Position numbers and translations under genes: made by a program. A stretch of 64,000 nucleotides of DNA from Candidatus Pacearchaeota archaeon (GTDB taxonomy: Archaea; Nanobdellota; Nanobdellia; Pacearchaeales; GW2011-AR1), in contig JAGLQO010000018.1 in NCBI GenBank assembly GCA_023136775.1, positions 20,452-84,451 of the forward strand, in the 5' to 3' direction. Below the pieces are notes generated by a model that had not been told where the DNA came from, searched no databases, and saw nothing but the letters and a program-made list of their open reading frames with translations. Shown here one piece after another: positions 7,825-32,964 of this stretch. The stretch's first letter is position 1; each line of letters begins with the position of its first letter.

Positions 7825-7884
7825 ATTTGTTTGTAAAATGAATCCTATAGTTAGCTTTATTAATTTTGAAAGCTGTTTTTTATT

Positions 7885-8247: not shown

Positions 8248-8391
8248 GGTTATTGGGATAATGTCATATACGCTTCGCGGGGTAACTGGTAACAGGACGG
8301 AGGTAGCAGGTGAAACACATTGTTGCGCGATTCTTTCGCGCCTGCGCATGGAGGGCTGTTATGAGATGTAGGGTTATTGGAGTAATGTCAT
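8241..8391 (+). repeat. 27-bp direct duplication of the minD 5-prime end flanking a 97-nt GC-rich insert
   Basis: GATGTAGGGTTATTGGGATAATGTCAT (8241-8267) vs GATGTAGGGTTATTGGAGTAATGTCAT (8365-8391), 25/27 identical. The insert 8268-8364 is ~55% G+C by my count and contains the hairpin GCGCGAttcttTCGCGC. Confidence 0.85.
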
Positions 8392-9095
8392 TTAAGGGAG
8401 GGGTTGGAAAGACTGTTTCTGCGATTAATTTGGCTACTGGGTTGAGCTTGAAGGGTAAAAAAGTTTTGGTAATTGATGGGAATTTTCTTAGTCCTACTCT
8501 TCATTTTTATCTTGGACTTTTGAGGCCGAAGACAACTTTAAAGGAAGTTATTAGAAATAATCTAGCACCTGAGAATGCAATTTATGAACATAAATCGGGG
8601 ATTCATTTATTACCTTGTAATTTTTATAAGGGAATTGATTTGAATAAATTGAAAAAAATTGTTGATGAGTTAAAAGAAAAGTACGATTATATTATTGTGG
8701 ATTCTGGGCCTAGTTATACTGACGAGATAATTGCTATTTTGATGATTAGTGATGAGTTGATATTTATTACGACTGCTGACTACCCTACTCTTGCTTCTAC
8801 TGTTAAGGCGGCTAAATTTGCGAAGTATAAAAACGTTAAAATTCTTGGAATTGTTGTTAATCGAAAACGGAATAAAAAATATGAGCTTAGTAAAAAAGAT
8901 ATTGAGGCTACTGTAAAATTGCCTGTCATTTGCACAATTCTCGAAGACCATAAAATGATGAGTTCTGTTTTAGAATTTGTTCCTGTTGTTTGGAAATATA
9001 GACGAAGCAAAAGTGCCAAGGCATATTTAGAATTGGCGGATAAAGTTTGCAAGTCCGATAATTCATGGTCTTTAATTGGCAGTTCTCTTCGTTGA
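8361..9095 (+). CDS. minD: MinD/ParA-family deviant Walker A ATPase
   Basis: MRCRVIGVMSFKGGVGKTVSAINLA carries the KGGxGKT signature, followed by VLVIDGN and IIVDSGP. I place the start at ATG 8361. The track start at 8310 lies inside a GC-rich insert and adds a non-conserved leader. Confidence 0.85.
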   Translation: MRCRVIGVMSFKGGVGKTVSAINLATGLSLKGKKVLVIDGNFLSPTLHFYLGLLRPKTTLKEVIRNNLAPENAIYEHKSGIHLLPCNFYKGIDLNKLKKIVDELKEKYDYIIVDSGPSYTDEIIAILMISDELIFITTADYPTLASTVKAAKFAKYKNVKILGIVVNRKRNKKYELSKKDIEATVKLPVICTILEDHKMMSSVLEFVPVVWKYRRSKSAKAYLELADKVCKSDNSWSLIGSSLR

Positions 9096-9135
9096 TGTCA
9101 AATCAGTTAACCGTCTTTATTATCTTATAAAAAGT

Positions 9136-10185
9136 TTATTTTGTTCTTGATTTTGCCAACAATACTAGCCCTAAAATTGATAAAGAAATTCCGAATATCG
9201 TTACTATTATTGCAATTGATTTTGGGATTCCTAATGCTTGGATATCTAGATAAGCTATTGCTAGGCTGAATCCTATTATTTCTAGGGCGATTTCTTTTAT
9301 CGAAGTTCCTCCGCTAAACATTAAGAGTAATGCTATTGCTATTGGAAGTAGGATTCCTGATAATATCCATATTTGTTTTTGGGATTCGTCTTCGCAATTA
9401 ATTTCAGTATGGGGAAAGCCATTCATTTCGTAAACTATTTTTGTTCCTTCACAATCTGAAATCTGAGCCGACACAGCGTGTCCTAATTCGTGAACTGCGA
9501 CTGTCCCTATAAAAACGAAGTTAGTTATTATTATTATAAAAATTAGATGTTTTAGAAATGGGATGATTGGAGAACTTTGTAGATGAGCGGGATAATGTTT
9601 TGGTTTTTTATTGACAAATAATGTTTTTAAAAATTCTGCAAAGAATAAAAGAAAAATTGTTGTCGAGATTAAAGTTAGGATTAAGGTTGGTTTTGTCGAA
9701 ATGAATGCTGATAGATAAAACATTAGGGAAATTGAGGCGTATGCTATTAGGATTGTAATATGATGTTTGTGTTCATCGATGAAAGTTAGGAATGTCATAA
9801 TTGTAATTAGGAATGCTACTGGGATTGTAATATGGAGATAAGATTTGTTGATTAGGGCTGGAATTATTGAAAGTAATAGTAAGGGGATTTGATATGTTAT
9901 TTTTTTGTTCTTTTGGATTTTTGACAAGATTAAAATTAGGGAAATTGTTTGGATTATTATTAGTGATGCTAGTAATGTTGTTAATTTTTCTAATGTGAAT
10001 TGCTGTAAACCCATTGACCAAAAAAATGTTATAATTGCGAAAATTAGATATGTTATTGAGATTGGTAGGGTTAGGAGGTCGTGGGGTTTTAGGGTTTTTG
10101 CTTTGTGTTTTTTTAGGAGGTAGATGCTTGATATGACTGGAATGAAAAATGCTGTTATCGCTATTAGTAAAAGTAATACTCCCAT
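9136..10185 (-). CDS. Polytopic membrane protein with an HExxH motif (putative membrane metalloprotease)
   Basis: 349 aa, at least 8 hydrophobic helices. The motif VAVHELGHAVSAQ follows a TM helix. Family assignment was not verified. Confidence 0.55.
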   Translation of the reverse strand: MGVLLLLIAITAFFIPVISSIYLLKKHKAKTLKPHDLLTLPISITYLIFAIITFFWSMGLQQFTLEKLTTLLASLIIIQTISLILILSKIQKNKKITYQIPLLLLSIIPALINKSYLHITIPVAFLITIMTFLTFIDEHKHHITILIAYASISLMFYLSAFISTKPTLILTLISTTIFLLFFAEFLKTLFVNKKPKHYPAHLQSSPIIPFLKHLIFIIIITNFVFIGTVAVHELGHAVSAQISDCEGTKIVYEMNGFPHTEINCEDESQKQIWILSGILLPIAIALLLMFSGGTSIKEIALEIIGFSLAIAYLDIQALGIPKSIAIIVTIFGISLSILGLVLLAKSRTK

Positions 10186-10693: not shown

Positions 10694-11419
10694 TTATTCT
10701 AGTTCAACGTAGAAGAAATAATCGGTTGTTTCTGTGTTGCCGTGTCCGTCTTCTAAAACTAACATTTGGAAGTCGTGAGTTATGGAATTGAAGCCATCTA
10801 CATCCTGCTCCAAAAGAGCTGCGAAAATTGGATTTCCACTTGCATCTGATAATAATACTTCTTCAAATACTCCTGGATTCTTATCTCCAGAACTATCAAA
10901 AACTTCTGTGCTCATACATGCAGTTGTCTCATTGAATTCTGTAGATCCTACTATAAAATCGGCATGGGCATTTAATATATATGTCTCAAATGTCTCATTG
11001 ATACCGTCTGCAGCATCATCAATATTCATTGTTGATTCTAGATCTGTACCATTTTCTGTCCAATTGAAACACTTAACACCTGTCCAATCTAGATTAAGCC
11101 CATTTGTTGAGGCAAAAACTTCTCCTTGAGGTGAAGCTAGTGACCAGTTGTACATTGGATTTCCTGCTGAATCTGATAATGTAATTGAACCAGAAACGTT
11201 ACCGTAGTAACCTTGCCAAGATTGTGTGATTGTTCGTCCTGTAATATCCAACTCTGTAACATTACCCGCTATTGCGGTATAATTTTTTGGACTGTCAGCA
11301 GCGAGTCTTGTTGAATTCTTATACGACACTTCATTAGCACCGTTTGGAATAGCAAGAGTCACTCCCAACGTGAATACAAGCATTAATGCAACCATTGCGA
11401 TTGTAAAAATTTTGTTCAT
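10694..11419 (-). CDS. Secreted protein, family shared with 13198..13962
   Basis: Signal peptide MNKIFTIAMVALMLVFTLGVTLA. Shared blocks are AGNVTE, TQSWQGYYGN, MYNWSLASPQGE, CFNWT and HDFQMLVLEDGHG...YFFYVELE at the C-terminus. Its start lies 1 nt after the stop of the ArsR-like gene. Confidence 0.8.
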   Translation of the reverse strand: MNKIFTIAMVALMLVFTLGVTLAIPNGANEVSYKNSTRLAADSPKNYTAIAGNVTELDITGRTITQSWQGYYGNVSGSITLSDSAGNPMYNWSLASPQGEVFASTNGLNLDWTGVKCFNWTENGTDLESTMNIDDAADGINETFETYILNAHADFIVGSTEFNETTACMSTEVFDSSGDKNPGVFEEVLLSDASGNPIFAALLEQDVDGFNSITHDFQMLVLEDGHGNTETTDYFFYVELE

Positions 11420-11420
11420 C

Positions 11421-12038
11421 TTACTTTAGTCCTCCTTTCAGTTGTTCTCCCAAAAGTAAGCCTTTTGGATCATAAATTGGAACAAGATACTCTTGTTCAA
11501 GTTTCGACAAAGAGGAGGTAGTCGTTACTTGAAACAGAGGTTTCTCGTCCGAATTTTTTTGAATCTCATTTATTTTATGAGTTAAATCTGCATCTTTTGA
11601 CAGAAGGTAAATTTTGAGTTTCTTGCTATTTGTATATACGACTATTGCCTCAATAACATCAAAATATTTATGAACTCTCCAAAAGAATTTTTCTATTGTT
11701 GATTGGATACTTGCATCGTCAAGTCCCCAAATTTGTATTATTACTTTATGCTCGGTTGACAGTGGGATTAATTTTTTTTCACCCAAGCCTTTTGCTAAGG
11801 GTACCATGTAAAATGATTCTTCAGATATTGAGAACAAGGTTCTTGGCTTGCCTTTAGAAACTTCTCCTGTACGTTGTCGCTTTACGATGTCTGCTGCTTC
11901 TAAGAGTTTTAATTGTTGAGAAACAAAAGAAACTGTTGTGTTCACTGTTGATGCTATTTCCGTCGGAGATGACGGTTTCTCTATTATCACCCTAAGAATA
12001 TCCCACCTTGGACTGGCAAGGAATGAATCTAGTTCCAT
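11421..12038 (-). CDS. ArsR-like winged-helix regulator with an uncharacterised C-terminal domain
   Basis: SPRWDILRVIIEKPSSPTEIASTVNTTVSFVSQQLKLLEAADIVKRQR is a typical ArsR/SmtB HTH. 205 aa. Confidence 0.7.
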   Translation of the reverse strand: MELDSFLASPRWDILRVIIEKPSSPTEIASTVNTTVSFVSQQLKLLEAADIVKRQRTGEVSKGKPRTLFSISEESFYMVPLAKGLGEKKLIPLSTEHKVIIQIWGLDDASIQSTIEKFFWRVHKYFDVIEAIVVYTNSKKLKIYLLSKDADLTHKINEIQKNSDEKPLFQVTTTSSLSKLEQEYLVPIYDPKGLLLGEQLKGGLK

Positions 12039-12225: not shown

Positions 12226-12633
12226 TTATTCTATAAAGGATTTTATTTCTATCAAAAATTCGTTGATGTCCATAACTAGCTCTTTTGTTATTGTTTCGAA
12301 GACAATCAAATTATCTATTTCTCCATACTTGTGAGCTATTATATTTCTCATTCCTTTTGCATCTTTTAATTTTACTAAAAGATCTTTTGAAATGATTTTG
12401 TTTTCTTGCAATATCGTAAAAGATTTTAATTTATCATCTATTTCTAGACTTTCCTTTCTACAGATTAGATAAGAAATAGACACTACAAATTCTACGATTT
12501 TTTCAAAATACCGTTCACATGCTGCTCGTTTTTCAAAATTTTCTTGATACTCGCTATAATGGTTAGGAATTATAGAAGTCAACTCTTTTAGGTAATTTTC
12601 TAAATTAATTATTTCGTCATTTAATCTAGTCAT
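12226..12633 (-). CDS. hepT: HEPN-domain toxin (HepT/DUF86)
   Basis: R-x4-H-x-Y motif in GMRNIIAHKYGEID. 135 aa. 4-nt ATGA overlap with the upstream nucleotidyltransferase gene. Confidence 0.85.
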   Translation of the reverse strand: MTRLNDEIINLENYLKELTSIIPNHYSEYQENFEKRAACERYFEKIVEFVVSISYLICRKESLEIDDKLKSFTILQENKIISKDLLVKLKDAKGMRNIIAHKYGEIDNLIVFETITKELVMDINEFLIEIKSFIE

Positions 12634-13121
12634 TTTTTAAAAATTATTTTTCCTTCTTTATCTATTTCGTTTTGAATTTTTTTTGGAAGTGATGAGAAAA
12701 TTTGAATATCAACGCCTTCCCTGGTTTCTCCTAATAGTCTTGCTCTGATTTTAGTTGGATTGAGTTTTGTTTTTTTTAATTTTATACAAATATCTATATC
12801 TGAAGAATTTATGTTTGTTTTCCGCGCATGACTCCCAAATAAAATAATTTCACTTACTTCTGATTCAAAATTTTCTAGAATTATCTTTTTGGTTTCCTCT
12901 ATTATCTTTTTTATTTCTTGGTTTTTTTTAAGACTAAATTCATTTTTATATTTTGAGATATTTTCAATTGCTTTCAACTTTTTTCGTATATCCCTAGATA
13001 ATCTTGTTGTTTCAGATGGAATTAATTTTCTTCCTAGAAGTTGCTTCTCAATTATTTCCAATTCCCTCTTGCCAAATAAAAGTCGTGCTTCTTGCAATTT
13101 AATAAACTTTAACAATGTCAT
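12630..13121 (-). CDS. mntA: Minimal nucleotidyltransferase antitoxin (MntA-like) with an N-terminal extension
   Basis: The G-S-x(9-13)-D-x-D signature is in ILFGSHARKTNINSSDIDICI. Paired with the HEPN gene. Confidence 0.8.
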   Translation of the reverse strand: MTLLKFIKLQEARLLFGKRELEIIEKQLLGRKLIPSETTRLSRDIRKKLKAIENISKYKNEFSLKKNQEIKKIIEETKKIILENFESEVSEIILFGSHARKTNINSSDIDICIKLKKTKLNPTKIRARLLGETREGVDIQIFSSLPKKIQNEIDKEGKIIFKK

Positions 13122-13197: not shown

Positions 13198-13962
13198 TTA
13201 TTCTAGTTCTACATAAAAATAGTAAGTTGATTCTTCAGTGTCTGTTCCGTGTCCATCTTCTAATACTAGCATTTGGAAGTCGTGGGATCTGTTGTCAAAT
13301 CCCATTACGTCTTCGTCAATTATTGAAGCAAATACTACAGATCTGGTTGTTGGCTCATACATTAAAACTTCTTCAAATTCTCCGTCTGTTCCATTACCTG
13401 CGTCTCCGAAAAGCCTTGTGCTTCTGCATTCATTTTCGGAGAATTCTAAGTTATTTGTATAAAATTTATCATGGTCGAACAAATTAAATGTTTCATTTAC
13501 TCCATCTACGTCGTCCCAATCAATATTAAATAACTCTTCTAATTGCGTAAGGTTTGTTCCATACATACTTGTGTTTCCCTCATTTCCTGTTTCAGGGTTA
13601 TAGTTTCCTTCAGCTGTAAAATTAAAGCATTGAATATTCGCCCAGTTGATTGAATCGTTAGTTGATGCATAGATTTCACCTTGAGGGGAAGCTAAGGACC
13701 AGTTGTACATTACATTGTCGCCTGCGTCGGCCAGCTGGATTGTTCCTGTGATATTACCGAAGTAACCTTGCCAAGTTTGCGTTGGTGAATATCCAAAAAT
13801 ATTAATTTCGGTTACGTTTCCAGCTTGTGCTTGAATTGACTGAGCCTCATCTATTGGGGCTCTTGTAGAATTAATGAAAGTTGTCTCGGCTCCGAATGGC
13901 TGGACAGCTAAGACTAGAGAAATTTGGAATAAAATCAAAGCTGCTAGAATTAATTTTTTCAT
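13198..13962 (-). CDS. Secreted protein, paralog of 10694..11419
   Basis: Signal peptide MKKLILAALILFQISLVLA. Same conserved blocks as its paralog (AGNVTE, TQTWQGYFGN, MYNWSLASPQGE, CFNFT, HDFQMLVLEDGHG, YYFYVELE). ATGA overlap with the upstream gene. Confidence 0.8.
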   Translation of the reverse strand: MKKLILAALILFQISLVLAVQPFGAETTFINSTRAPIDEAQSIQAQAGNVTEINIFGYSPTQTWQGYFGNITGTIQLADAGDNVMYNWSLASPQGEIYASTNDSINWANIQCFNFTAEGNYNPETGNEGNTSMYGTNLTQLEELFNIDWDDVDGVNETFNLFDHDKFYTNNLEFSENECRSTRLFGDAGNGTDGEFEEVLMYEPTTRSVVFASIIDEDVMGFDNRSHDFQMLVLEDGHGTDTEESTYYFYVELE

Positions 13963-14798
13963 TTAAGTCCGTCCATTATTACTTTTAGTTGATCAATGTC
14001 TTTTGAGAATGATGTTTTCTTCTGCAACTCGTTAAGAGAATTAATGTATCCTTGTAATTTTGTTACCAATTTGTCTAACTCTTGTTTTTCTACCAAATTA
14101 GAAATTTTGTTCTTAGCAAACTCTATATCTTTTGTATTTTGTTCTATAGAAGCTTTAAAATCTTGAGTCTCTGCTTTGAACCCGTCGAGATCTTGGATTC
14201 TTGTTCTCATTTCCGCATAAATACTTTGAACCTTATCTGTTTGAATATTAATTAATCCTTCAACTTTTTTTATTTCGATTAATTCTTTTTTTACTTCTTC
14301 GGATAACTTAATAATTTCTTCCACTCCTCTAAAGAATTTTATTTTCTTTCTAGTCTCACTAACTTCCTCCATAACTCTATTCATTACTGATTCATTGCCT
14401 TCCAGATTGGCTTTAATTGCTTCGATTTTTACTTCTTGCTTTTGAACTTCTGTCATTAATTTTTCCGGCTGAACTGAAGCTACCATATCTGCTGACTTCA
14501 CAGCTTTTAATTCGACTTCTTGTAAAGCTCTACTTTGCTCTAGAATCATTGAACGAAGTTCTCCTATTTGTTCACTAGCTTGTGTAAATCTTTCACTAAA
14601 AGAATTTCTAATTTCTTTGGACGCTTCGCCCCCAGCTTTTAGTTTTTCAATTTCAGTTTTCAGTTTTATGATTTCGGTGTTTGGGATTCCTGTTGGTGGG
14701 GCAACGACTAGCTTTTTTTCTTTACTTTCCTTAGGGCTCTCGCCCTCGGCTGCATCTGCTGCATCTTCTCCCTTTTTCTTTTTCAAAAAATTAAACAT
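13959..14798 (-). CDS. Coiled-coil protein (279 aa), cytoplasmic
   Basis: Heptad-rich E/K/L/I sequence throughout, with no TM or signal peptide. 8-nt overlap upstream and 4-nt overlap downstream indicate an operon. Confidence 0.7.
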   Translation of the reverse strand: MFNFLKKKKGEDAADAAEGESPKESKEKKLVVAPPTGIPNTEIIKLKTEIEKLKAGGEASKEIRNSFSERFTQASEQIGELRSMILEQSRALQEVELKAVKSADMVASVQPEKLMTEVQKQEVKIEAIKANLEGNESVMNRVMEEVSETRKKIKFFRGVEEIIKLSEEVKKELIEIKKVEGLINIQTDKVQSIYAEMRTRIQDLDGFKAETQDFKASIEQNTKDIEFAKNKISNLVEKQELDKLVTKLQGYINSLNELQKKTSFSKDIDQLKVIMDGLK

Positions 14799-15114
14799 TT
14801 CCCAACTCGCCCTCGATTTCTTTTATTAATTTTTGAACTACCGTGTAATCCCTTTTGCTAAATGTTGACTTAAAGATTTTAATTTTAGAAGGCAATAAAA
14901 TTAATTTTATTTCTATAAGTTTAGCTCTTTTATATTCAAGCCCCCTTAGTTTTATTTCTAACTCCAAGTGTCTCAACTCTAATTTAGAAGCTGTTAGATA
15001 TTTTAAACCTTCTGTTCTTTCCTTGTAACTATTTAACTTCTTTATTTTTTTATAATGCTCTTTACCTACAATCTTTTTTGAAACTTTTTTTATTCTATTA
15101 AATTCTTTTTTCAT
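14791..15114 (-). CDS. Small basic helical protein, conserved partner of the HerA-like ATPase
   Basis: Start corrected to ATG 15114, 1 nt after the ATPase TAA. The track start at 15195 overlaps the ATPase by 80 nt. KLILLPSKIKIFKSTFSKRDYTVVQKLIKEIE aligns with KLLQIPLKTKIWKSSIVKKDLESIYKIFTEVE in 49258..50064. Confidence 0.6.
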   Translation of the reverse strand: MKKEFNRIKKVSKKIVGKEHYKKIKKLNSYKERTEGLKYLTASKLELRHLELEIKLRGLEYKRAKLIEIKLILLPSKIKIFKSTFSKRDYTVVQKLIKEIEGELGNV

Positions 15115-15115
15115 G

Positions 15116-18100
15116 TTATTTTTTAGATGGAGATTTTTTCTTAGTCGTAGATTTAGTTGATGCTTTTGGTTTTGACGGAGAGGATTTTCCATCAAATGCT
15201 TCTAATATTTTTATCATATCTGCTTTGTTTATTGCTGGTTTTAATTTCGTAGCTAAACTTGGAGATAATTCTTTTAACCAATCTGATATTTCATTTTTTT
15301 CTTCGTTTACATGAAGTTTGAAAATATCTTCGTCCAATGTTGGAAGCATATCTTTAATTTCTGCAAGACTAGAAATCATCGCTCCATTGTCGAAAGTTAA
15401 TGAATTAAGTTGTTTATTATTTAGCAATTCCATTGGATCTTTTGCGTCTTCTTTTTCTTCACTTGCCTGTGCCTTTTCTTTTGATTCTGCTTTTGAATGC
15501 TCTTTTTTTGCTTCCGTAACTGACGCTTCAATATCTTCTAAGTCTGCTAATTCTATTTCTAACTTCTTTGGTTTTTTGCCCAACTTTTCCCATTGCTTAG
15601 TAATCCGCGGAACCAGTCCTTCAAGATAAATATCAACAACAGAAAAATTTCCGACCATCACTTTATCTTTTACTAATTTTAATTCCATTTTCAAATCGAA
15701 TACATCAATCTTCAAATTTTCTAGCTGCTTAATTTGATAGTCTAATTCATCTACTTGATCATTATATTTATTATACTTTTCTAATTCCTCGTCGGAAAGT
15801 CTTCTTGTATTATGGAGAATTGGTCTGAACTGAATAAAATAAGGAAGCCCTTTGTTGTACTCTGCATTTTGAAACATGGCAACTCCAACTTCTGATTTCA
15901 CTAAAGATTTCAAAAAACTTTCTCCGAATTTTGTTTTGATTCTTTCTAGGTCGCCTTCTTCTACCGTACGGGTCTGAACTTCAGTATTAATATTCGCTTT
16001 AATTTCTCCAACAAAATCGTTCATAACCTGTGAAATTAAAATTTGCCCTATTCCCCATTTACGAAATTCTCTGCAACCTCTTTCAATTTGCAAGAATCCT
16101 GCCCCCGTTCCACCAAACTTTGGAAGAAGTCGATGAACTTCATCGAATACCAAAAGGATTTTTAATTCTTGAGCTTCTTGAGGGTCGCTCTTAAAAACTT
16201 GTCTAATTGTATTTGCTACGAAGATGTCCATGTCTTTTGGTTGAAGTTTGTTTAATGTAAAAATTTGTATATGCCCTGGATCAAAGAATTTATTGATATT
16301 AATTATTTGACGAGCATCTTTTACGGCTCTAATGTTTCCAGGAAAACCCCTAGCCTCTGTTGTCTTCATTCCAAATTTTGAATAAAATGAAAACATTTTT
16401 TTGTCTTCACATTTTCTAAGCATCCCAGACCACTGGGCTGTTGGGTCGAATACAATTACACAAACTCCCTTTAGCAAGGCTTCTTCAATTATGACTTGTG
16501 CCGAAATGGATTTACCCATACCTGTTGCACCCGCGACAATCGTATGAACTTTTAATCTTTCTAGTTCAAGATACGCGGGCTTTTTTGATTCTGCAATTAA
16601 TCCTAACTTTGCTGTTTTTTCCCCTGGACCTGGAAGTGAATTAAAATCTACTCTAACGCTGTAACGTTCTTTCTTCGCCATATGCCGCTTATAGACAAAT
16701 ATGTTTAAAGCAATAAAACTAAGGAAAGAAATACCGACAAGATAAATCCAAACTTGAATTCCCAAGAAAGCATAAAGATAAATTGGTTGGACAACCTTAA
16801 ATGCCGTCGACGTTTTTGAAACTAGATTAAGATAAGTTGTCCTTACTTCTAAAGTGTATTCACCAATTGGGATTTCTTCTGGAAGTTGTATAGCTTCTAA
16901 AAGTGTTAAAGATGATGCGATTTCTGACTGCGTGTTTGTTTCTGAATAGACAATTGAATTATTTATTCCTTTTATTTTAGAATTAATATAAACTATATAG
17001 CCTTGATCACTTAGTAAATTTTGCAATGTTAATTTGTATTTTAATTCTTCGGATTTTTTAATTGAGTCTTCAAATAAATCCACTCTAATTAACATCGTTT
17101 CAATTGGCATTCTTCGCTCTACGATATCTATTGTTACTGGGATTTTTTGATTCAGCGAACCTGAAATTGTAATATTTCCTACATATCTCCCTATGTTTTC
17201 TGTCCCATAAAATGTCAATCCTATTTCTCCAAAAGAGTTTGATGGAATTGTTATTGAAGTTTGATCTACTGTTAAAATGTTAGTTAACTCTTGAGGCAAT
17301 GCAATATTGAGCGTCATTGTTCCACCAAAATTATAGATTCCAATTGACTCTTCGACAAATGTATTTTTTCTTACTTCCTTTTTTATTTCTTTTGTACTTA
17401 TCCAATAATCGTCCCCGTTCTTGACTGCTTGTTCTTTTATGTTTGAAATTTTTTTATCAGTGAAAGGTCCTGTTTCAAAATTCATGTCCGACTCTGAAAT
17501 CGCGGCTGCTAGTAAGGTAAAATTTACATCTAGATGGGCTGGCTTGTCTGAAAAATCTATTGTTTTTATTCCATTATCATAGCCTTGTTTAATTGCAAAA
17601 ATTGTCTGATTATTTGGAATCACCGAAGGGAAAATAGTGTAATAACCTTGAAGATTTGTTTGTGTTGAAATTCCTCCTATTGAAATTTTTACGTTGCTTA
17701 TTGGAACGCCTACCTCATCAGTTACGTAACCTTCAATATTTGTTATGATTATATCATCTACTCCTGGAGTCTCTGGTGGCAAAGTTATGTTTCTTTGTAT
17801 CATACTTTCATTTAGCGTTATATTCGCACTTGAAAATCTACTGTCGTAACCTGATTTTTCTGCTATAATGCTGTAATCTCCTTCTAGTAATTCCATTGTG
17901 AAATTATAAAGTCCTGTAGCGGTTGTATTTTGAATTGAGCCTACAAAAGTAACTACTGCATCTTCTATCGGATTTCCCATAATGTCTTTAATGTATCCAA
18001 ATATCGTTGCTGATACCGTATTTCCTATTCCGCCGCCCTCGGGGCATATGTCATTTGGGTCTGTGAAGAAATAATATGTTAGAGTTGTTGCCTCTGGGGT

Positions 18101-18799
18101 TGGAATTAACATTTGATAATTTACCGTCACGTCTTGGCTGTAACCTTTTTGCATCGATGAAACATGTGTTACGTAAACGTAATTTCCAAGGTCATCTTTT
18201 AAAATTCCTATGTCAAAAATTTCGTTATCTCCGTCCCATTTATGCGTATGTGTCGACGGAATGTTGGTTATATTTTGTGCTCCAAGCATTATGCTCATGT
18301 TATTTGTAAATGTATTTGATGAACAATAAATTTCTCCGCCGCAACCCATATATGCATCTAATTCAGAAGGTGTTAGTGGTTCTAATGTATCGAAATCTAT
18401 GGCGTCTGATGTTGATGCGTAAATTTCGTTTCCGTTTGGGTCTGATGTGTCCATGCAATCGAAAAATAAGTCTTGTCTTTTTATTTCATTTTCTAAATCT
18501 CCAGAAAGTTGTTCTGTGAATCCTGGGACTCTTAATGCTAGTCCATATATTCCGTTCCAATTGGGTGTTGGGAATCTTCTGAAAAGTGTCATGCTTGTTA
18601 TACTTCCGGCTTCGGCGTTGATATAGGTTGCATAGCCTGTTATTAGGTAGTGGGATGTTAGGAGAATTAATAAGATCGAGGTTGACAAAAGCGTTAAAAA
18701 AAGAAGAAAAAGTTCTATCTTTGTTGCTTCTTTTTCTTTCCATAATTCCCGTTTTGCAATCCTAGTCGCGGCTAGTCTAGATCTCCCAATCCTCTTCAT
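15116..18799 (-). CDS. Fusion protein: N-terminal anchor, ~650-aa ectodomain (two carboxypeptidase-regulatory-like repeats plus beta-sandwiches), TM helix, HerA/FtsK-superfamily P-loop ATPase, conserved C-terminal module, Lys/Ser/Pro tail
   Basis: Walker A VAGATGMGKS (DNA 16508-16537), FDPTAQW, Walker B LLVFDEVHRLLP and ILISQ. TM IYLYAFLGIQVWIYLVGISFLSFIALNIFVY. Ectodomain repeats GYIKDIMGNPIEDAVVTF..GLYNF..GDYSIIAEKSGYD and GYVTDEVGVPISNVKISI..GYYTI. Tail KSSPSKPKASTKSTTKKKSPSKK. Confidence 0.85.
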   Translation of the reverse strand: MKRIGRSRLAATRIAKRELWKEKEATKIELFLLFLTLLSTSILLILLTSHYLITGYATYINAEAGSITSMTLFRRFPTPNWNGIYGLALRVPGFTEQLSGDLENEIKRQDLFFDCMDTSDPNGNEIYASTSDAIDFDTLEPLTPSELDAYMGCGGEIYCSSNTFTNNMSIMLGAQNITNIPSTHTHKWDGDNEIFDIGILKDDLGNYVYVTHVSSMQKGYSQDVTVNYQMLIPTPEATTLTYYFFTDPNDICPEGGGIGNTVSATIFGYIKDIMGNPIEDAVVTFVGSIQNTTATGLYNFTMELLEGDYSIIAEKSGYDSRFSSANITLNESMIQRNITLPPETPGVDDIIITNIEGYVTDEVGVPISNVKISIGGISTQTNLQGYYTIFPSVIPNNQTIFAIKQGYDNGIKTIDFSDKPAHLDVNFTLLAAAISESDMNFETGPFTDKKISNIKEQAVKNGDDYWISTKEIKKEVRKNTFVEESIGIYNFGGTMTLNIALPQELTNILTVDQTSITIPSNSFGEIGLTFYGTENIGRYVGNITISGSLNQKIPVTIDIVERRMPIETMLIRVDLFEDSIKKSEELKYKLTLQNLLSDQGYIVYINSKIKGINNSIVYSETNTQSEIASSLTLLEAIQLPEEIPIGEYTLEVRTTYLNLVSKTSTAFKVVQPIYLYAFLGIQVWIYLVGISFLSFIALNIFVYKRHMAKKERYSVRVDFNSLPGPGEKTAKLGLIAESKKPAYLELERLKVHTIVAGATGMGKSISAQVIIEEALLKGVCVIVFDPTAQWSGMLRKCEDKKMFSFYSKFGMKTTEARGFPGNIRAVKDARQIININKFFDPGHIQIFTLNKLQPKDMDIFVANTIRQVFKSDPQEAQELKILLVFDEVHRLLPKFGGTGAGFLQIERGCREFRKWGIGQILISQVMNDFVGEIKANINTEVQTRTVEEGDLERIKTKFGESFLKSLVKSEVGVAMFQNAEYNKGLPYFIQFRPILHNTRRLSDEELEKYNKYNDQVDELDYQIKQLENLKIDVFDLKMELKLVKDKVMVGNFSVVDIYLEGLVPRITKQWEKLGKKPKKLEIELADLEDIEASVTEAKKEHSKAESKEKAQASEEKEDAKDPMELLNNKQLNSLTFDNGAMISSLAEIKDMLPTLDEDIFKLHVNEEKNEISDWLKELSPSLATKLKPAINKADMIKILEAFDGKSSPSKPKASTKSTTKKKSPSKK

Positions 18800-19292: not shown

Positions 19293-20105
19293 ATGATGGG
19301 AGATTATATGGGATTTTTAAAAAAGGAGAGAGCGCCTAGCGAATTACCTGGTTTGGCATTAGAGAGTTCTAATAATTCAAATGTGAATAAAATCTCTGCC
19401 CCTGAAATTGCGCCCGTGACAAGTAAAAATGTTGTTGCTCATATTGCACCTATTAATAATGAGCCAGAACCTATTAATTATTCTAGACCAACTTTCCCGA
19501 GCCTTCCTCGCGATGAGCCAGTAATTGCCGAGCCTGCTAGAGCAGTACATGTTGAACATAAAAACATACATCATGAAACAAAACAAGAACATACTCACCA
19601 CAGGGAACATAAAGTTAAACATAGGGAAGAAATCGCTGGAGAGGATTATTTGGAATTTTCGCATAAGGATCATGAGAGAATTGATGCGGAAGAAATCAAG
19701 GCAAAAATTTCTGAACATATTGATGGCGATGAACATAATAAATTGAAATATTTTGATAAGGTTCTTGATGATATTAATGACGGAATTCAAGATCTTGGAA
19801 AGTTAGAAGATTGGTATGAAAATAAATTTTCTTCTGAAGATATTGTTTCTAATATGAAAGGATACTGGGAAGGAAACAAGGCTGATATTATTATTCAAAG
19901 TTTTGGATCTGAATATAAAAGAAAAATTAATGAGAATGTAAAAAACTTGCAAAAATTAGAAGAAGACTGGCGAGCTATTTATTTTCAATTGATTAAAAAA
20001 GAAGAGGAAATGAAAAAAGTTGAACAGGGATTAAAGGGTACGTTATCGGAATTTGTTGATTTATGCAAGCGGAGAAATAATGGGAAAGAAAGAGAGAAAA
20101 AGTAA
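19293..20105 (+). CDS. Hypothetical protein with a His/Glu-rich middle and a helical C-terminus
   Basis: 270-aa ORF. TATA-like GTATATAAAAT at 19268-19278. In-frame ATGs at 19293, 19296 and 19308. No recognisable domain. Confidence 0.55.
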   Translation: MMGDYMGFLKKERAPSELPGLALESSNNSNVNKISAPEIAPVTSKNVVAHIAPINNEPEPINYSRPTFPSLPRDEPVIAEPARAVHVEHKNIHHETKQEHTHHREHKVKHREEIAGEDYLEFSHKDHERIDAEEIKAKISEHIDGDEHNKLKYFDKVLDDINDGIQDLGKLEDWYENKFSSEDIVSNMKGYWEGNKADIIIQSFGSEYKRKINENVKNLQKLEEDWRAIYFQLIKKEEEMKKVEQGLKGTLSEFVDLCKRRNNGKEREKK

Positions 20106-20415
20106 AAAAAATAGCAAACATAACAGTAACGTAACAAAATTATATTTTGGAGTTGGCGGAATTCTTGTTGCGATTCTTGTTGGATTAATTTTATTTAATA
20201 GTGGAATATTTGAGGAAGCTCATGATATTTCTAAATTTAGTATTGATGATGAATGTTCAATTATAATGGGCAACCTTATTCATAATATTCGGGACGGTGG
20301 TGATTGCAAAATTAAGTGTGTGAATAATTGTGAGATTCGAGAATTAGATTTTTATGACTCGGAATTTACATTTGAAAATAGTTCTTGTCATACTTGCGAC
20401 TGTTATTGCAAATAA
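20080..20415 (+). CDS. Small N-terminally anchored Cys-rich protein
   Basis: From ATG 20080: MGKKERKSKKNSKHNSNVTKLYFGVGGILVAILVGLILF (TM), then 8 Cys including CKIKCVNNC and CHTCDCYCK. The track start at 20053 overlaps the previous gene further. Confidence 0.45.
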   Translation: MGKKERKSKKNSKHNSNVTKLYFGVGGILVAILVGLILFNSGIFEEAHDISKFSIDDECSIIMGNLIHNIRDGGDCKIKCVNNCEIRELDFYDSEFTFENSSCHTCDCYCK

Positions 20416-21224: not shown

Positions 21225-22457
21225 TCAGCACAGAACTTTATTGATAATCCAAAAAACATTCAAATAATGGGTAAAAATTACTTCGCAACCGTTGTATTTT
21301 TTCTTTACATCTGAATTTTCACAGAAAACATAAATTCTTTTTACTTTATTCAAATCAATAAATTTTTTCATAGAAGAGCTAATTTCTGCATTTCCTATTC
21401 TAGATTTTATTTCAAACCCAAAAACTCCTTTTTCTCCCTCGATAACAAAATCCATTTCATGAGAACTTTTATAATTCCAGAAATTGACATTCAATCCAGC
21501 TTTAACAAAAGAATTCAATATAAAATTTTCGTAGACTTCTCCCTTATCTTGTTTCAAATCAACATCGTTAAAATTGTTTATAATAGAATTCTTAAATCCC
21601 AAATCAAACAAATATGTTTTAGGGGATTTAATTAACTCCTTAGATTTATTTGACAAATAAGGTCTAACAATATTCAAAATGGTTGTCTTTTCTAAAACAT
21701 CAATTATTTCCCTAATTTTATTATTATGAATTCCCAAGTCTTGGGCAACAGAACTTTTATTTAAAATTTTACCATCCTGTAATGCAAGTTTTCTCAACAT
21801 ATTTTCAAATTCACTCAAATCTCTATAATTTAAAACCCCGCGAATTTCTTTCAATAAATAAGTATTTTTAATATTTCTTAATATTTCTCTTTTTATGCCC
21901 TTCCCCCGATCTAAAACAACTTCTGGATACCCTCCGAACTTTAAATATTCTGAGAATTCTTTTTTTAATATATTAAAATCTTCAAACTTTCTCATACTAG
22001 AGAATAAAAAAGAATTTTCCTTCGAAAAAAAATCTATAAAATTCTTGAAACTTAGCGGATAACATTCAAAGATAAAAACTCTTCCAACAAGATATTGTAA
22101 AGAATGTATTGCAACTTCTGATCTCGAAGAACCAGAAATAAAAATTTTAATTTTATATTTATCATAAATCAACTTCAAATATTTGCCACTATTTTTTGAA
22201 TATTGTATTTCATCAATAAAAAGAAAATCATTACTTTCCACATACTTCTCAATAAAAAGATTTATATTATTTTCAAATAAATTTAAAATATCTAAATCAT
22301 CAAATGTAATGAAATTAGATTTATTCGTCTTTACTTTATTATAAAAATAATTCATAATAGTTGTTTTCCCAATTTGCCTAGCACCAACTATTGCAACAAT
22401 TTCTTTTCGATTCAACGCATTTGTTATATTTTTTACTATATCTCTTTGAATAAACAT
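21225..22457 (-). CDS. AAA+ ATPase of the COG1373 type (P-loop N-domain plus DUF4143-like PD-(D/E)xK-like C-domain)
   Basis: Walker A VGARQIGKTT, Walker B LFIDEIQY, and a C-terminal MDFVIEGEKGVFGFEIKS block. Confidence 0.8.
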   Translation of the reverse strand: MFIQRDIVKNITNALNRKEIVAIVGARQIGKTTIMNYFYNKVKTNKSNFITFDDLDILNLFENNINLFIEKYVESNDFLFIDEIQYSKNSGKYLKLIYDKYKIKIFISGSSRSEVAIHSLQYLVGRVFIFECYPLSFKNFIDFFSKENSFLFSSMRKFEDFNILKKEFSEYLKFGGYPEVVLDRGKGIKREILRNIKNTYLLKEIRGVLNYRDLSEFENMLRKLALQDGKILNKSSVAQDLGIHNNKIREIIDVLEKTTILNIVRPYLSNKSKELIKSPKTYLFDLGFKNSIINNFNDVDLKQDKGEVYENFILNSFVKAGLNVNFWNYKSSHEMDFVIEGEKGVFGFEIKSRIGNAEISSSMKKFIDLNKVKRIYVFCENSDVKKKYNGCEVIFTHYLNVFWIINKVLC

Positions 22458-22563: not shown

Positions 22564-22872
22564 TTAATTTTTTAGATAAATTATAATGCTTTGATTGGTA
22601 TAAATTTCATAATCTTTATTTGATTCTATTAATATATTTGTTCCAATTCCGCCTAGTGCATTTATGTATCCAAATGTTGAGCCATATTCTACAACAGAAA
22701 CTGATTGCACTTGTGGGTATTTTTCCATTAATTCACTTGCATAAATTGATGGAAAGTATTCGGAAATTGTGAAATTATTTTTTCCTTCAATCAAGCTTAT
22801 ACTTAATGGATTATCTGCTATTATTGAAGTCATTGATAATGCTAGAATTATGAATATTAACTGAATTTTCAT
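22564..22872 (-). CDS. Small secreted protein (102 aa), last gene of a four-gene surface operon
   Basis: Signal peptide MKIQLIFIILALSMTSIIA. 4-nt overlap with the upstream gene. Confidence 0.65.
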   Translation of the reverse strand: MKIQLIFIILALSMTSIIADNPLSISLIEGKNNFTISEYFPSIYASELMEKYPQVQSVSVVEYGSTFGYINALGGIGTNILIESNKDYEIYTNQSIIIYLKN

Positions 22873-24938
22873 TTTTTATGTAAATGTGAAATTTTATTGA
22901 ATACTTTTGATTTTTCGTCTTCTGTTAAACTCGCATAGTCCAGCTGAAGAGAATTGTATAGGGAGTTTGCCTCGTCATGACTTCCTTTGCTTTGAAGACC
23001 CTTAACTTTTCTGGCTTTTTGAAGGAATGATGCTATTGAATATTGTTGTTGCTTTTTTTTCATTACTGTTAAATAAATTACTAGCGAACAAACCATTAAG
23101 ACTAGGAGTGTCATCCCGAGAGATCCTGAATTTGGAATTTCTGATAAAAAATAACCTGTTAACATGTTAGAATCTTGTGAGATTTTTACGGGAGATAATA
23201 TTATTTGATTCAAAACCTGAACATCTGTTTTGTCATCCAAAATATAAGTTATAACTTTTACATCTGTTCCAAAACTGAAAAGTCCATATTTCTCCTCGGT
23301 GTAATCTAGGTTTTTAATTTTTATATAATCCGAAGATATTGCTGAGGGAAGTTTTAGGAGTAAATATTTATCTGAACCTCTTTCTAAAACTGAATTTATG
23401 AAATGTTTTATTATTGTTTTACTCGACTTTGACCCATCAAGATAAACTGTTTCAAAAACCGTAATCTCGCTTACTATTTCTAAATTATTCTCTTCCATCA
23501 TTTTGAAAGACTGTTTAATACTTTTGTCAATCTGTGACGGTGTTAATTCTGTAGAATATTCTATTAAGGCTGTCCTTAAATCGTCGTCTGTAATTTTTAT
23601 TTCTTTTCTTGAAGAATCTATCGTTAAGATTTGTGATGGAACTTTCTTTTTTATTATGTTTAATTTTATTCTAGAACTACTGAGCCTCGAATTTAATACA
23701 TCTGAATTAAGATTTTGTAATTTGTAATTTGTAATTTCTCGCTCCAGTGCATTTAGTTCTGACAAAGAACTTGATATACTACCAGATATTCCAAGCGTCC
23801 TTAGTAATTCTTTTTCTGAATCTGATTTATCATCCAGTATAGATTGTGCATTATTTATATCATCGTCCAATAGCTTTAATTCTGTTAACATGGCATCTAC
23901 TAATGAAACCAACTCTGAAGACAATCCTGTTGCGACTGTATTATTATCTCGTCTTGTCATTGCGCTTACTTCTGGAGATAAATCCGCCACGTTAGACGCT
24001 TCATCTACTGGAGAGATTCTATAATAATATGTTTTTAATTTTGAAACATCATTGTCTGAATAATATTGATTGTCTGCATCAATTGTTTTATACAAATCTG
24101 CTCTACTAACTCCTGGAGTAATTGACCTGTAAATATTTATTGATTTGATATCGTCTTCGGGAGAAAACCATTCTAATCTTATTCGTTTATATTCCCCTAT
24201 TGCTTCTACATTTGAAATTGATGTTGGCGCAGTTGTATCTATTGAGAATATACTCCCTGATCTTATTTTTGTTCCTCCTCCTCCTTCTAGTGCCGTTGCT
24301 TCGAATTTAAATGTTCCAATTTTTTCTCCTGCTGATTTTGGAATTACTAAGTATCCTTTCCAAAAATTTCCCGAGCTATCTCCCGAGCTATCTATAATTA
24401 TTGGCTTATACGAAATTCCGTCATATGAATATGATAAGCTTGGTGTTGCTGATGGTCTCTTCGTGGTTATAAGTGAAACTTTATATTTTCCTGCTTTCAA
24501 TACATCGTTTCCCATTATATCCTGCGCTGCGTCTTCTATTATTATATCTGCTGCGATTGGGGCATTTATCCTGAAAACTATTTCTAATTCTGCTATGTCA
24601 GTTAAGGGAAGAACTTCATCTGGCGACCATTCAGTACATCTAACAAAATACCTGTGGATTCCGTCAGTTAATTCAGTTAATGGTTTCTTGTGTATTATTT
24701 CGAAATTATCCTCAAAATTTGTCATATCATGAAATGGCGCCCACGGAGTTTTACTATATCTACATAACTTGCTTACACTTGTGCTTACCTGAAGAACCAA
24801 AGAATCTGAAGGTATTACTTCAATGTGTGTGTCCGATATATTAGTAGATGCGTCTCCAAAGTTAGGAGATATAACTATTGCAGAAATAAAAGAACAAGAC
24901 ATTGAAATTAATATTAATATTATATAAACTACTTTCAT
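22869..24938 (-). CDS. Type I membrane surface protein with an FN3-like domain and a short helical cytoplasmic tail
   Basis: Signal peptide, then the FN3-like YKRIRLEWFSPEDDIKSINIYRS...YYYRISPVDEASN. TM LGMTLLVLMVCSLVIYLTVM. Tail ANSLYNSLQLDYASLTEDEKSKVFNKI. Confidence 0.75.
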   Translation of the reverse strand: MKVVYIILILISMSCSFISAIVISPNFGDASTNISDTHIEVIPSDSLVLQVSTSVSKLCRYSKTPWAPFHDMTNFEDNFEIIHKKPLTELTDGIHRYFVRCTEWSPDEVLPLTDIAELEIVFRINAPIAADIIIEDAAQDIMGNDVLKAGKYKVSLITTKRPSATPSLSYSYDGISYKPIIIDSSGDSSGNFWKGYLVIPKSAGEKIGTFKFEATALEGGGGTKIRSGSIFSIDTTAPTSISNVEAIGEYKRIRLEWFSPEDDIKSINIYRSITPGVSRADLYKTIDADNQYYSDNDVSKLKTYYYRISPVDEASNVADLSPEVSAMTRRDNNTVATGLSSELVSLVDAMLTELKLLDDDINNAQSILDDKSDSEKELLRTLGISGSISSSLSELNALEREITNYKLQNLNSDVLNSRLSSSRIKLNIIKKKVPSQILTIDSSRKEIKITDDDLRTALIEYSTELTPSQIDKSIKQSFKMMEENNLEIVSEITVFETVYLDGSKSSKTIIKHFINSVLERGSDKYLLLKLPSAISSDYIKIKNLDYTEEKYGLFSFGTDVKVITYILDDKTDVQVLNQIILSPVKISQDSNMLTGYFLSEIPNSGSLGMTLLVLMVCSLVIYLTVMKKKQQQYSIASFLQKARKVKGLQSKGSHDEANSLYNSLQLDYASLTEDEKSKVFNKISHLHKK

Positions 24939-32963: not shown

Positions 32964-32964
32964 T

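Follow-up and report, generated by a model that had tools for sequence, protein, structure and literature searches.

A HerA-clade ATPase joined to exchangeable predicted ectodomains: a membrane motor family of DPANN archaea and its candidate functions

Architecture of the type A motor protein

The window analyzed here, a stretch of 64,000 nucleotides from a Candidatus Pacearchaeota archaeon (GenBank assembly GCA_023136775.1, contig JAGLQO010000018.1, positions 20,452 to 84,451), encodes two related proteins in which a P-loop ATPase follows a transmembrane (TM) helix and a predicted extracellular region. The larger of the two, a protein of 1227 amino acids (aa) that we call type A, is the main subject of this work; its paralog is called type B. 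An earlier note, made from the sequence alone, had described in type A an N-terminal anchor, an adhesin-type or carboxypeptidase-regulatory-like region, a TM helix, a complete P-loop ATPase, a conserved C-terminal module, and a Lys/Ser/Pro tail, and had read the whole as a surface-exposed domain linked through the membrane to a cytoplasmic HerA/FtsK-type motor. Pfam matches, hydropathy, and the presence in the translation of the motifs VAGATGMGKS, FDPTAQW, LLVFDEVHRLLP, and ILISQ bear out the open reading frame (ORF) with its anchor, TM helix, and ATPase; the C-terminal module and the tail are distinct in the AlphaFold2 (AF2) model described below; and the surface-to-cytoplasm reading is supported by charge, N-X-S/T sequons, Pfam, and AF2.

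Two hydrophobic segments define the topology. TM1 (aa 30 to 48) follows a highly basic N terminus of 29 residues, with five Lys/Arg residues in the 15 positions before it and none in the 15 after it, a pattern that recurs in homologs. TM2 (approximately aa 683 to 701) is followed by six Lys/Arg residues within the next 15. Eleven sequons lie before TM2, and one lies in the C-terminal 525 aa. Based on this charge bias and sequon distribution, type A is predicted to be a bitopic membrane protein with its N terminus inside, the sequon-rich region of about 630 aa between TM1 and TM2 outside, and its C terminus inside.

The predicted ectodomain contains two CarboxypepD_reg-type domains and two immunoglobulin (Ig)-like domains. 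The first of the former is detected above the Pfam cut-off (CarboxypepD_reg, aa 265 to 333; E = 2e-13), and the second falls just under it (CarbopepD_reg_2, aa 355 to 434; 28.7 bits, with a cut-off of 32.2). The adhesin-like character suggested for this region derives from these domain types. When type A orthologs are compared with the window protein, the CarboxypepD_reg repeats are the least conserved region (Table 1). Full-length homologs (47 to 69% identity) come from metagenome-assembled genomes (MAGs) of Pacearchaeota, Woesearchaeota, and Nanoarchaeota, and nearly all of them have the Walker A motif at residue ~755 to 770.

The motor belongs to the HerA clade

The Pfam DUF87/HerA central domain is matched at aa 732 to 836 (40.8 bits; cut-off, 23.2), and HerA_C is matched as well (27.8 bits; cut-off, 22). 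The ATPase signatures of type A are a Walker A motif (GATGMGKS), a Walker B motif (FDEVH), REFRKWG, and ISQ. Across 62 aligned homologs, the key residues GxTGxGK, DPTAQW, DE.HR, and SQ are invariant. Together with RE.RKWG they are retained throughout the family, and the motor, whose catalytic motifs are thus intact, is expected to be active. An AF2 monomer model of aa 703 to 1227, built from the same number of homologs (predicted local distance difference test [pLDDT] score, 89; predicted template modeling score, 0.76), has long helical hairpins in addition to the RecA-like core, and toward its C-terminal end a small module (pLDDT, >90) and a disordered Lys/Ser/Pro tail (pLDDT, <50).

Structure and profile comparisons agree on the placement of this domain. 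In a Foldseek search of the PDB, the top match was HerA (4d2i; E = 3.7e-11), followed by Sir2-HerA, HerA-NurA, TcpA, and the FtsK motor, with a probability of 1.0 to HerA, FtsK, and TcpA. When the sequences of the PDB were searched with an ATPase-domain profile, the search recovered HerA of T. kodakarensis and S. solfataricus, Sir2-HerA, DUF4297-HerA, and YjgR at E-values of 7.5e-12 to 4.6e-7, and recovered FtsK, DotL, a VirB4-like protein, and TcpA at 0.02 to 0.55, over the P-loop region only. The domain has the features of the FtsK-HerA superfamily: its core is RecA-like and of the additional-strand catalytic-E type, and both Walker motifs (A, and B with DE) are present along with the conserved Arg and Gln motifs. 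By these sequence and profile relationships, we assign the motor to the HerA clade of that superfamily rather than to the FtsK, VirB4, or type IV coupling protein (T4CP) clades. The NCBIfam equivalogs for HerA, CedD, TraD, TraC, and TraB all score 10- to 40-fold under their cut-offs.

The earlier note suggested that the protein might take up or export DNA or another substrate where cells touch; the case for such a role consists of this clade membership and the membrane geometry. To our knowledge, all characterized HerA-clade enzymes act on DNA, and all characterized members of the HerA/FtsK superfamily form six-copy rings. By analogy with them, we tentatively favor the reading that the protein may be an adhesion-coupled, hexameric, membrane-apposed translocase of a polymer, probably DNA, although we put its chances somewhat below even. 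The alternatives are weighed below where the evidence on them is presented.

A family with a constant motor and exchangeable ectodomains

When 1.84 billion cluster representatives were searched with the ATPase domain (291 aa), relatives turned up in 986 clusters, of which 342 scored E < 1e-30; motor identity across the family is 48 to 75%. Architecture statistics were compiled for those listed representatives, 133 in all, in which Walker A is preceded by more than 150 aa. A TM helix lies 30 to 110 aa before Walker A in 130 of these. The part that precedes the motor measures 167 to 6562 aa (median, 925), with 38 representatives exceeding 2000 aa; the distance from Walker A to the C terminus is far less variable (median, 434 aa). 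The membrane-proximal Ig-like pair of the window protein is matched at the equivalent position in 73. Type B and most other members apparently combine a cleavable signal peptide with a single TM helix. By this comparison, the motor, the TM helix preceding it, and usually the Ig-like pair are the constant elements of the family, and the distal ectodomain is freely exchanged.

The giant homologs are genuine genes carried by long contigs: P0240 (6873 aa) lies on one of 322 kb, P0172 (6253 aa) on one of 397 kb, and P0129 (4862 aa) on a 620-kb contig labeled Woesearchaeota. The giants carry faint precomputed matches to NPCBM_assoc. In three other homologs (P0080 to P0082), precomputed Pfam matches include TPR_19, and the sequences end in a tetratricopeptide-like motif.

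Named relatives span the Woesearchaeota, Pacearchaeota, Micrarchaeota, Aenigmarchaeota, Nanohaloarchaeota, Diapherotrites, and Altiarchaeota. A pattern scan of the GTDB species genomes yielded at least 561 loci that encode such proteins, and the best 80 of these, to which the counts out of 80 below refer, are almost all labeled DPANN or unclassified archaeon. Labels of Patescibacteria, Nitrospirae, Leptospiraceae, and Methanosarcinales also occur; these belong to MAG contigs of 1.4 to 7.6 kb that are probably misbinned, and we do not count them as occurrences outside DPANN. The context of distant relatives is of a housekeeping kind (RNA polymerase, gyrB, SRP54, and MCM genes), and no close relatives of the motor were found on 72,556 plasmids or among 50,697 phage records. 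The family is thus chromosomally inherited and largely restricted to DPANN, and fusion to an N-terminal region is the rule.

Such a distribution bears on the possibility that the protein is a defense or mobile-element HerA, that is, part of an antivirus system or the packaging ATPase of a conjugative element or virus. PADLOC yields weak matches to generic HerA and mad8 models (E = 1e-11 to 1e-16), PHROGs yields weak terminase and FtsK-like matches to the motor, and the structure resembles Sir2-HerA and, in BFVD, viral ATPases at the superfamily level only. Antiphage HerA systems (Sir2-HerA, DUF4297-HerA, and MADS) combine their ATPase with an effector and occur in patchy islands, whereas here no Sir2, DUF4297, or nuclease effector is fused or adjacent, and the chromosomal locus is syntenic across many species. 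Close plasmid or phage relatives are lacking, as noted, and the HepT/nucleotidyltransferase pair and AAA_14 gene that lie nearby (see below) are nonconserved insertions. Context largely excludes this explanation, which we regard as very improbable.

The same ATPase is also found in soluble, stand-alone form (P0261, P0274, and P0342), and two of these proteins (P0261 and P0342) keep the helical hairpin domain. In one locus (L005; GCA_053535615.1, 1.23-Mb contig, positions 1..9254), a 2462-aa fused motor is followed by two small proteins with two or three TM helices, and then by a stand-alone ATPase with an insertion of ~40 aa and a 451-aa homolog of the coiled-coil partner described below. In a micrarchaeal locus (L006; GCA_026396285.1, 3400..8100), an uncalled open frame of 1566 codons lies directly upstream of a 366-aa "stand-alone" ATPase, which may be a split or miscalled fusion rather than a soluble form.

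Conserved partners and the second motor

The earlier note had placed type A at the head of a translationally coupled operon containing a small basic, a coiled-coil, and a secreted protein. This is confirmed by the junctions of what we term operon 1 (TAAcATG, ATGTTTAA, and ATGA), and those of operon 2, which includes type B, are ATGA and TAATG; hence, both operons are translationally coupled by overlapping codons. The fusion and the operon are also conserved in relatives: loci L001 and L002/L003 keep the order ATPase, ~107-aa basic protein, ~280- to 296-aa coiled-coil protein (cc279), and ~254- to 268-aa secreted protein (sec254 in the window), and across the 80 GTDB loci the type A gene with its big ectodomain is normally followed by this cassette. 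That note understated the scope of the finding, which is a DPANN-wide family with ectodomains of up to ~6500 aa and a linked coiled-coil partner.

Table 1. Features of the two motor genes and their neighbors in the window. Median identities are those of type A orthologs to the window protein.
Feature	Positions	Strand	Basis or remark
Type A motor-adhesin gene, whole ORF	15116..18799	-	1227 aa, ATG start
Type A aa 1-48: conserved basic cytoplasmic N terminus and TM1 (signal anchor)	18656..18799	-	Hydropathy and charge; median identity 45%
Type A aa 49-260: distal ectodomain, homologous to secreted sec254 and ORF 10694..11419	18020..18655	-	BLASTP E = 1e-7; median identity 54%
Type A aa 261-440: two carboxypeptidase-regulatory-like beta-sandwich domains	17480..18019	-	Pfam PF13620 and PF13715; median identity 34%
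Type A aa 441-675: linker and membrane-proximal Ig-like pair	16775..17479	-	E = 3e-16 to paralog ectodomain; in many family members; median identity of Ig-like pair 42%
Type A aa 676-702: TM2	16694..16774	-	Hydropathy; equivalent TM in 130/133 representatives
Type A aa 703-1005: short linker and HerA-clade RecA-like ATPase	15785..16693	-	Pfam, motifs, AF2, Foldseek, profile search; median identity 77%
Type A aa 1006-1120: conserved helical hairpin domain, then charged linker	15440..15784	-	AF2 helices; aa 1006-1085 median identity 73%
Type A aa 1121-1227: small folded C-terminal module (LTFDNG...HVN..KNEI..W), disordered Lys/Ser/Pro tail, stop	15116..15439	-	AF2
Small basic protein, 107 aa from ATG at 15114	14791..15114	-	Listed ORF starts at TTG 15195
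cc279, conserved coiled-coil partner	13959..14798	-	N-terminal MFxFLKKKK motif
sec254, secreted protein with signal peptide	13198..13962	-	Homologous to type A distal ectodomain
sec254 paralog, 241 aa	10694..11419	-	44% identical to sec254; conserved after HTH gene (L002 synteny)
ArsR/MarR-type helix-turn-helix (HTH) protein, conserved neighbor	11421..12038	-	Pfam; L002 ortholog 44% identity; 21/80 loci
up270 (19293..20105) and up120 (20053..20415), divergently transcribed	19293..20415	+	up120: TM and Cys-rich ecto part
Type B motor protein, 814 aa: signal peptide, Ig-like pair, TM, ATPase, helical domain, C-terminal module, tail	50064..52508	-	
663-aa surface protein, first gene of operon 2: signal peptide, Ig-like domains, C-terminal TM, helical and Lys/Pro tail	52505..54496	-	
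268-aa basic protein with Lys/Pro/Ser-rich tails	49258..50064	-	Start overlaps type B stop (TAATG)

The partner most tightly linked to the motor is cc279. Its homologs number 464, with identities of 54 to 86% among the best 120, and its N-terminal M-x-F-(F/L)-KKKK motif is conserved; an acidic disordered linker comes next, and then, in the AF2 model, long helices at aa 41 to 108 and 111 to 235. Its homologs follow the motor in Pacearchaeota, in the micrarchaeal locus L006 (E = 4e-28), and in L005 (E = 2e-30), and lie directly behind the giants P0129 (E = 9e-29; L088) and P0172 (E = 2e-42; L089). On this sequence evidence, cc279 is the universal, obligate partner of the motor family. The homologs are often automatically annotated as "chromosome segregation ATPase," a label that reflects coiled-coil similarity only, and the full-length type A homologs are named only "DUF87 domain-containing protein"; both labels warrant replacing for these genes. 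Nothing specific was found for cc279 in Pfam or the PDB: a profile search returned generic coiled coils, and Foldseek returned no match. The MFxFLKKKK motif had prompted a comparison with ESCRT-III/PspA-like proteins, which is unsupported, there being no Snf7 or PspA matches in 44 members.

Conservation of the remaining genes is more variable. The small basic protein, which most likely starts at ATG 15114 rather than at the listed TTG, has homologs following the ATPase in L001, L002, and about 23 of the 80 loci; it is poorly conserved, is often missing, and has a C-terminal motif in common with the 268-aa basic protein of operon 2, which itself matches phrog_20667 (E = 1.5e-5). The HTH gene, the second sec254 paralog, up270, and up120 are conserved along with the ATPase cassette; orthologs of up270/up120 lie upstream of type A genes in L001, L002, and L004 and occur in 35 to 38 of the 80 loci. 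The small basic protein, sec254, up270, up120, and up245 have no Pfam identity. Other conserved neighbors are mostly surface proteins, including a CARDB-containing protein and a 592-aa ORF. A SpoIIM-like polytopic membrane protein (27909..28712, reverse strand) is a neighbor in 16 related loci and is the sole conserved neighbor with multiple TM helices. The SpoIIM family has been implicated in membrane remodeling (Makarova et al. 2015).

Type B was said in the earlier note to share the architecture of type A. The core does agree, the cytoplasmic parts being 63% identical, but the full architecture does not, since the type B ectodomain corresponds only to the membrane-proximal Ig-like pair of type A (E = 3e-16). 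It has a signal-peptide-like N terminus (…VSAGA|QY), an ectodomain of ~230 aa, and one TM helix by hydropathy. An ortholog of the 663-aa surface protein lies directly upstream of almost every type B locus with enough upstream sequence. Many contigs bear both motors 20 to 35 kb apart, as the window does. In L022 and L080, type A lacks the cassette and the type B genes on the same contigs have it (L075 and L073), and for this reason the two motors and one cassette look like one system. Histone-H1-like Lys/Pro/Ser-rich (SPKK-type) tails occur on the cytoplasmic ends of both motors (15116..15214 and 50064..50160), on the 663-aa protein (52505..52640), and on both ends of the 268-aa protein.

Homology of sec254 and its paralog to the distal ectodomain of type A hints that they might assemble with type A outside the cell. 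The superfamily includes protein-handling members, among them EccC of type VII secretion systems (T7SSs) and VirB4, and the motor could accordingly be imagined as an EssC- or VirB4-like device for protein export or surface assembly that secretes, extracts from the membrane, or polymerizes co-encoded proteins such as the small basic proteins, cc279, or members of the sec254 family. Besides the co-conservation of these homologous secreted proteins, the translational coupling of the ~107-aa protein to the motor would fit, as would the pairing in L005 of a membrane-anchored with a soluble ATPase, which is reminiscent of split EccC and, by analogy, of split multi-ATPase translocases in general. However, sec254-type proteins bear ordinary Sec signal peptides, the small basic protein is weakly conserved and frequently absent, and by its profile the motor falls within the HerA clade and not with VirB4 or FtsK/EccC. 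Furthermore, EssC/EccC proteins have two to three tandem FtsK-like ATPase domains after their TM helices, in place of the single domain followed by helical hairpins found here. We consider an export function improbable.

Alternatively, the protein may be a powered adhesin, whose hexameric motor would move no polymer through the membrane. It would spend ATP on gathering six ectodomains into a spike and on altering their conformation or position, pulling or retracting them or moving them along a cytoplasmic cc279 track, so that the cell could attach to a host surface, move on it, or penetrate it. A functional analogy is Mycoplasma mobile, whose giant leg proteins, anchored by TM helices, are powered from within by an F1-like ATPase. 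Such a role would be in keeping with the contrast between a constant motor and a fast-evolving, exchanged ectodomain with up to ~6500 aa of adhesin-type repeats. It also fits the nature of the linked partner, a long coiled coil with a basic/amphipathic N-terminal motif, as expected of a submembrane scaffold; the setting of the locus within a conserved surface-protein super-locus, in which many of the window's surface proteins have a base of an Ig-like pair and TM helix with short helical cytoplasmic tails; and the fact that no DNA-processing partner was recognized. Yet no characterized member of the HerA/FtsK superfamily is known to work in this way, force would have to pass through a single TM helix and a linker of ~25 aa, and stand-alone soluble copies of the ATPase exist. 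On balance, we think a powered adhesin unlikely, though it deserves to be kept in view beside the translocase reading.

Relationship to known translocases and ATPases

Sulfolobales CedB and CedD are two TM-anchored HerA-clade paralogs needed for DNA import (PMC11868833), and they are among the closest parallels to the translocase reading. Both systems have a HerA-clade ATPase behind a TM anchor and an additional N-terminal domain, two co-occurring paralogs, and an archaeal, chromosomal location, and Ced itself moves DNA at cell-cell contacts (PMC11868833). CedD is among the best NCBIfam matches of the two window motors, yet at only 26.3 and 29.8 bits (NF053655; cut-off, 600) and over aa ~744 to 796 only. 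The Ced N-terminal domains are cytoplasmic and resemble that of VirB4, whereas the present family has an extracellular stalk of 200 to 6500 aa. Ced requires the CedA/CedE channel and CedA1/A2 pilins and has no cc279-type partner; no CedA, CedE, or CedA1/A2 annotation occurs among the conserved neighbors here, where no search with dedicated models was made.

Canonical HerA, Sir2-HerA, and DUF4297-HerA are closest by fold and profile and share the Walker A and B, DE.H, and RE.RK.G motifs. The HAS barrel of canonical HerA was not found: the P-loop domain starts ~25 residues after TM2, AF2 places two short strands in that interval, and alignment with the HAS-barrel region of HerA is confined to ~20 residues that make up the final strands ahead of the P-loop. 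A TM helix and a ~25-aa linker thus take the place of the barrel and make the protein membrane integral. The HerA equivalogs score 20 to 23 bits against cut-offs of 800 to 970 (helicase_HerA, 22 versus 970; HerA_Thermprot, 20 versus 800), and no match to NurA, Mre11, Rad50, or an effector was found among the motor neighbors.

FtsK/SpoIIIE and TraB likewise combine a membrane-anchored N terminus, a linker, and a C-terminal hexameric RecA-like DNA pump whose pore faces the membrane. FtsK and TraB have polytopic anchors lacking large ectodomains and C-terminal winged-helix-turn-helix sequence readers. The proteins described here have instead one or two TM helices and a large ectodomain, and their C-terminal module has no Pfam match; the FtsK family model PF01580 reaches 16.6 and 18.9 bits (cut-off, 24), and TraB reaches 11 to 17 bits (cut-off, 800). 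Streptomyces TraB alone suffices for double-stranded DNA transfer between contacting cells, according to work cited in PMC5365140.

Another possibility is an FtsK-like housekeeping function as a tethered DNA pump for chromosome segregation or clearing at division, or as a nucleoid tether, with the ectodomain anchored in the wall or S-layer. The chromosomal context among gyrB, SRP54, MCM, and RNA polymerase genes, the broad occurrence in DPANN, and the action of the HerA clade on DNA are all compatible with this, as are the "chromosome segregation ATPase" label of cc279, with the caveat given above, and the nearby genes for a ParA/MinD-type ATPase and a tyrosine recombinase. It leaves unexplained, however, why ectodomains of thousands of residues vary between close relatives and why there are two to several paralogs with different ectodomains; further, no FtsK gamma domain was found, PF01580 stays under its cut-off, and the ParA and recombinase genes are conserved in the closest relatives only. 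We give such a function little credence.

T4CPs (TrwB/VirD4/TraD and TcpA) share with type A an internal N terminus, TM1, an outside segment, TM2, and a cytoplasmic nucleotide-binding domain. In type A, however, the outside "loop" has ~630 aa, and type B and most members apparently have a signal peptide and one TM helix. TcpA is a good structural match to the motor in Foldseek; TraD matches are weak (SXT_TraD, 27 bits versus a cut-off of 366), TrwB_AAD_bind reaches 12.5 and 16.1 bits (cut-off, 20.5), and the window neighborhood contains no type IV secretion system or relaxase genes. TdtA, which acts in the transjugation of Thermus thermophilus, is a HerA-like hexameric membrane-associated ATPase that pushes DNA out of the donor (PMC5365140). 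It differs in being soluble or peripheral, in having no ectodomain, and in being encoded on an integrating conjugative element beside a NurA-like nuclease and a restriction-modification pair. The pI/Zot assembly ATPases of filamentous phages also join a cytoplasmic P-loop ATPase, a TM helix, and an extracytoplasmic domain in one polypeptide, but the ATPase is N-terminal in pI, so that the order is reversed, and the present family has no phage context; the paralog matches Pfam Zot (E = 1e-4; 22.3 bits versus a cut-off of 20.3) over ~70 residues around Walker B.

We conclude, by analogy, that the motor would work most like CedB/CedD, TraB, T4CPs, or TdtA and is a member of none of these. It is kept apart from the Ced, HerA-NurA, FtsK, and T4CP families because the family-specific models fall far under threshold and the defining accessories were not recognized. 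No characterized family carrying this ectodomain was found in Pfam, NCBIfam, PADLOC, PHROGs, the PDB, or the literature searched. In that literature, from which subscription journals were mostly absent, we found no account of HerA ATPases bearing large extracellular domains, nor of the present DPANN family, so that a prior description is possible; the archaeal "dark matter" surveys consulted deal with other systems. The text and available supplements of a Pacearchaeota metaproteome paper contain no mention that would serve as expression evidence. We also considered whether the family is the "putative novel secretion system" reported by Makarova et al. (2015) and set this aside, as that system is MoxR/vWA/arCOG01314-based, with no mention of HerA.

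A possible adhesion-coupled translocase

Under the translocase reading, six motor copies would form a hexameric ring, and because its N-terminal face would be tied to the TM helices, its central pore would stand perpendicular to the membrane and point at it, as in FtsK, TraB, coupling proteins, and CedB/CedD. Six (type B) or twelve (type A) TM helices, together with the Ig-like pairs, could form a collar around the pore axis, and the distal ectodomains would bind the surface of a partner. The ring would then pump a polymer toward or away from the membrane where the ectodomain holds a cell or surface; DNA is the most probable substrate, since every characterized HerA-clade enzyme acts on it. 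Such an assembly would be a conjugation-like or Ced-like device for exchange or uptake, with cc279 and the small basic proteins serving as submembrane scaffold or substrate adaptors, and the two paralogs might work together, as CedB and CedD do.

A number of observations weigh against this mechanism. Among the conserved neighbors, no NurA-like nuclease, relaxase, polytopic channel (of the CedA, VirB6, or ComEC kind), pilin, or competence gene was recognized. A DNA channel made of protein would be expected to need more than the one TM helix per subunit seen in type B and most members. For the C-terminal module, Pfam offers no counterpart among DNA-binding or other families, and although it is kept in the paralog and many relatives, it is missing from many others. 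In many orthologs, the C-terminal tails are Lys/Glu rich and not purely basic, so that DNA binding by the tail is not a conserved feature. Finally, a core function in the envelope would account equally well for so wide an occurrence among chromosomal housekeeping genes. It is on account of the missing nuclease, channel, pilin, and relaxase partners, the meager TM anchor, and the inconsistently basic tails that we hold the translocase reading only tentatively.

DPANN archaea form a large, mostly uncultured part of archaeal diversity and are thought to be host attached, and the molecules by which they make contact and transfer material are mostly unknown. A more specific version of the proposal is a DPANN-specific host-contact organelle, in which the giant, exchangeable ectodomain would grip or pierce a neighboring cell and the motor would pump DNA or drive the adhesin. 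We judge this version distinctly unlikely; if it were true, the motor could siphon host DNA as a source of nucleotides or exchange genomes. The family as a whole is a concrete candidate for the DPANN contact interface and equally for a new mode of envelope organization. It widens the known architectures of the HerA/FtsK superfamily and defines the cc279 coiled-coil family as its new obligate partner. There is a modest chance that this HerA-clade motor, with its unprecedented architecture and new partner, represents a categorically new trans-envelope machine; if so, adhesin and motor would be united in one polypeptide in a way that has no characterized counterpart.

Other genes of the window

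Between sec254 and the HTH gene lies a toxin-antitoxin pair encoding a HepT-like (HEPN) RNase and a minimal nucleotidyltransferase, overlapping by 4 nt (12226..13121, reverse strand). As relatives have other small ORFs or nothing there, the pair has probably been inserted into the otherwise conserved operon region. Within the surface-protein super-locus are genes for an AAA_14/DUF4143 ATPase (21225..22457, reverse), a calcineurin-like metallophosphoesterase (48343..49146, forward), and a surface protein with a PGAP1/lipase-like alpha/beta-hydrolase domain (28744..30741, reverse). By tblastn, none of these three has a counterpart in ~89 related loci; we therefore set aside the ideas that the metallophosphoesterase acts like Mre11 and that the AAA_14 gene takes part at all, neither being a conserved neighbor.

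Four surface proteins (22869..24938, 46256..48034, 52505..54496, and 54805..57348) have a signal peptide, an ectodomain, a C-terminal TM helix, and a short helical tail. The tails of the first and last contain a hairpin motif of the A..lY..l...Y..L type, and that of the third has a Lys/Pro-rich extension; this shared tail plan, with the tetratricopeptide-like ends of some motor homologs noted above, may represent a common cytoplasmic docking motif. A giant surface protein of 3608 aa (32965..43791, reverse) with TcfC/E-set and Big_13 domains overlaps the start of a 650-aa ORF (31056..33008, reverse) by 44 nt. In related loci, giants of 2.6 to 3.9 kaa with AF_1625_C, DUF2341, and Laminin_G_3 domains lie beside the motor genes.

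The super-locus is flanked by the ParA/MinD-type ATPase gene (8310..9095, forward) and the Xer-like tyrosine recombinase gene (58402..59226, reverse), the closest relatives that share them being L008/L038 and L039/L041. No tRNA genes occur in the 64-kb window. Its G+C content varies from 28 to 37% and is lowest around 20 to 24 kb and 58 to 64 kb.

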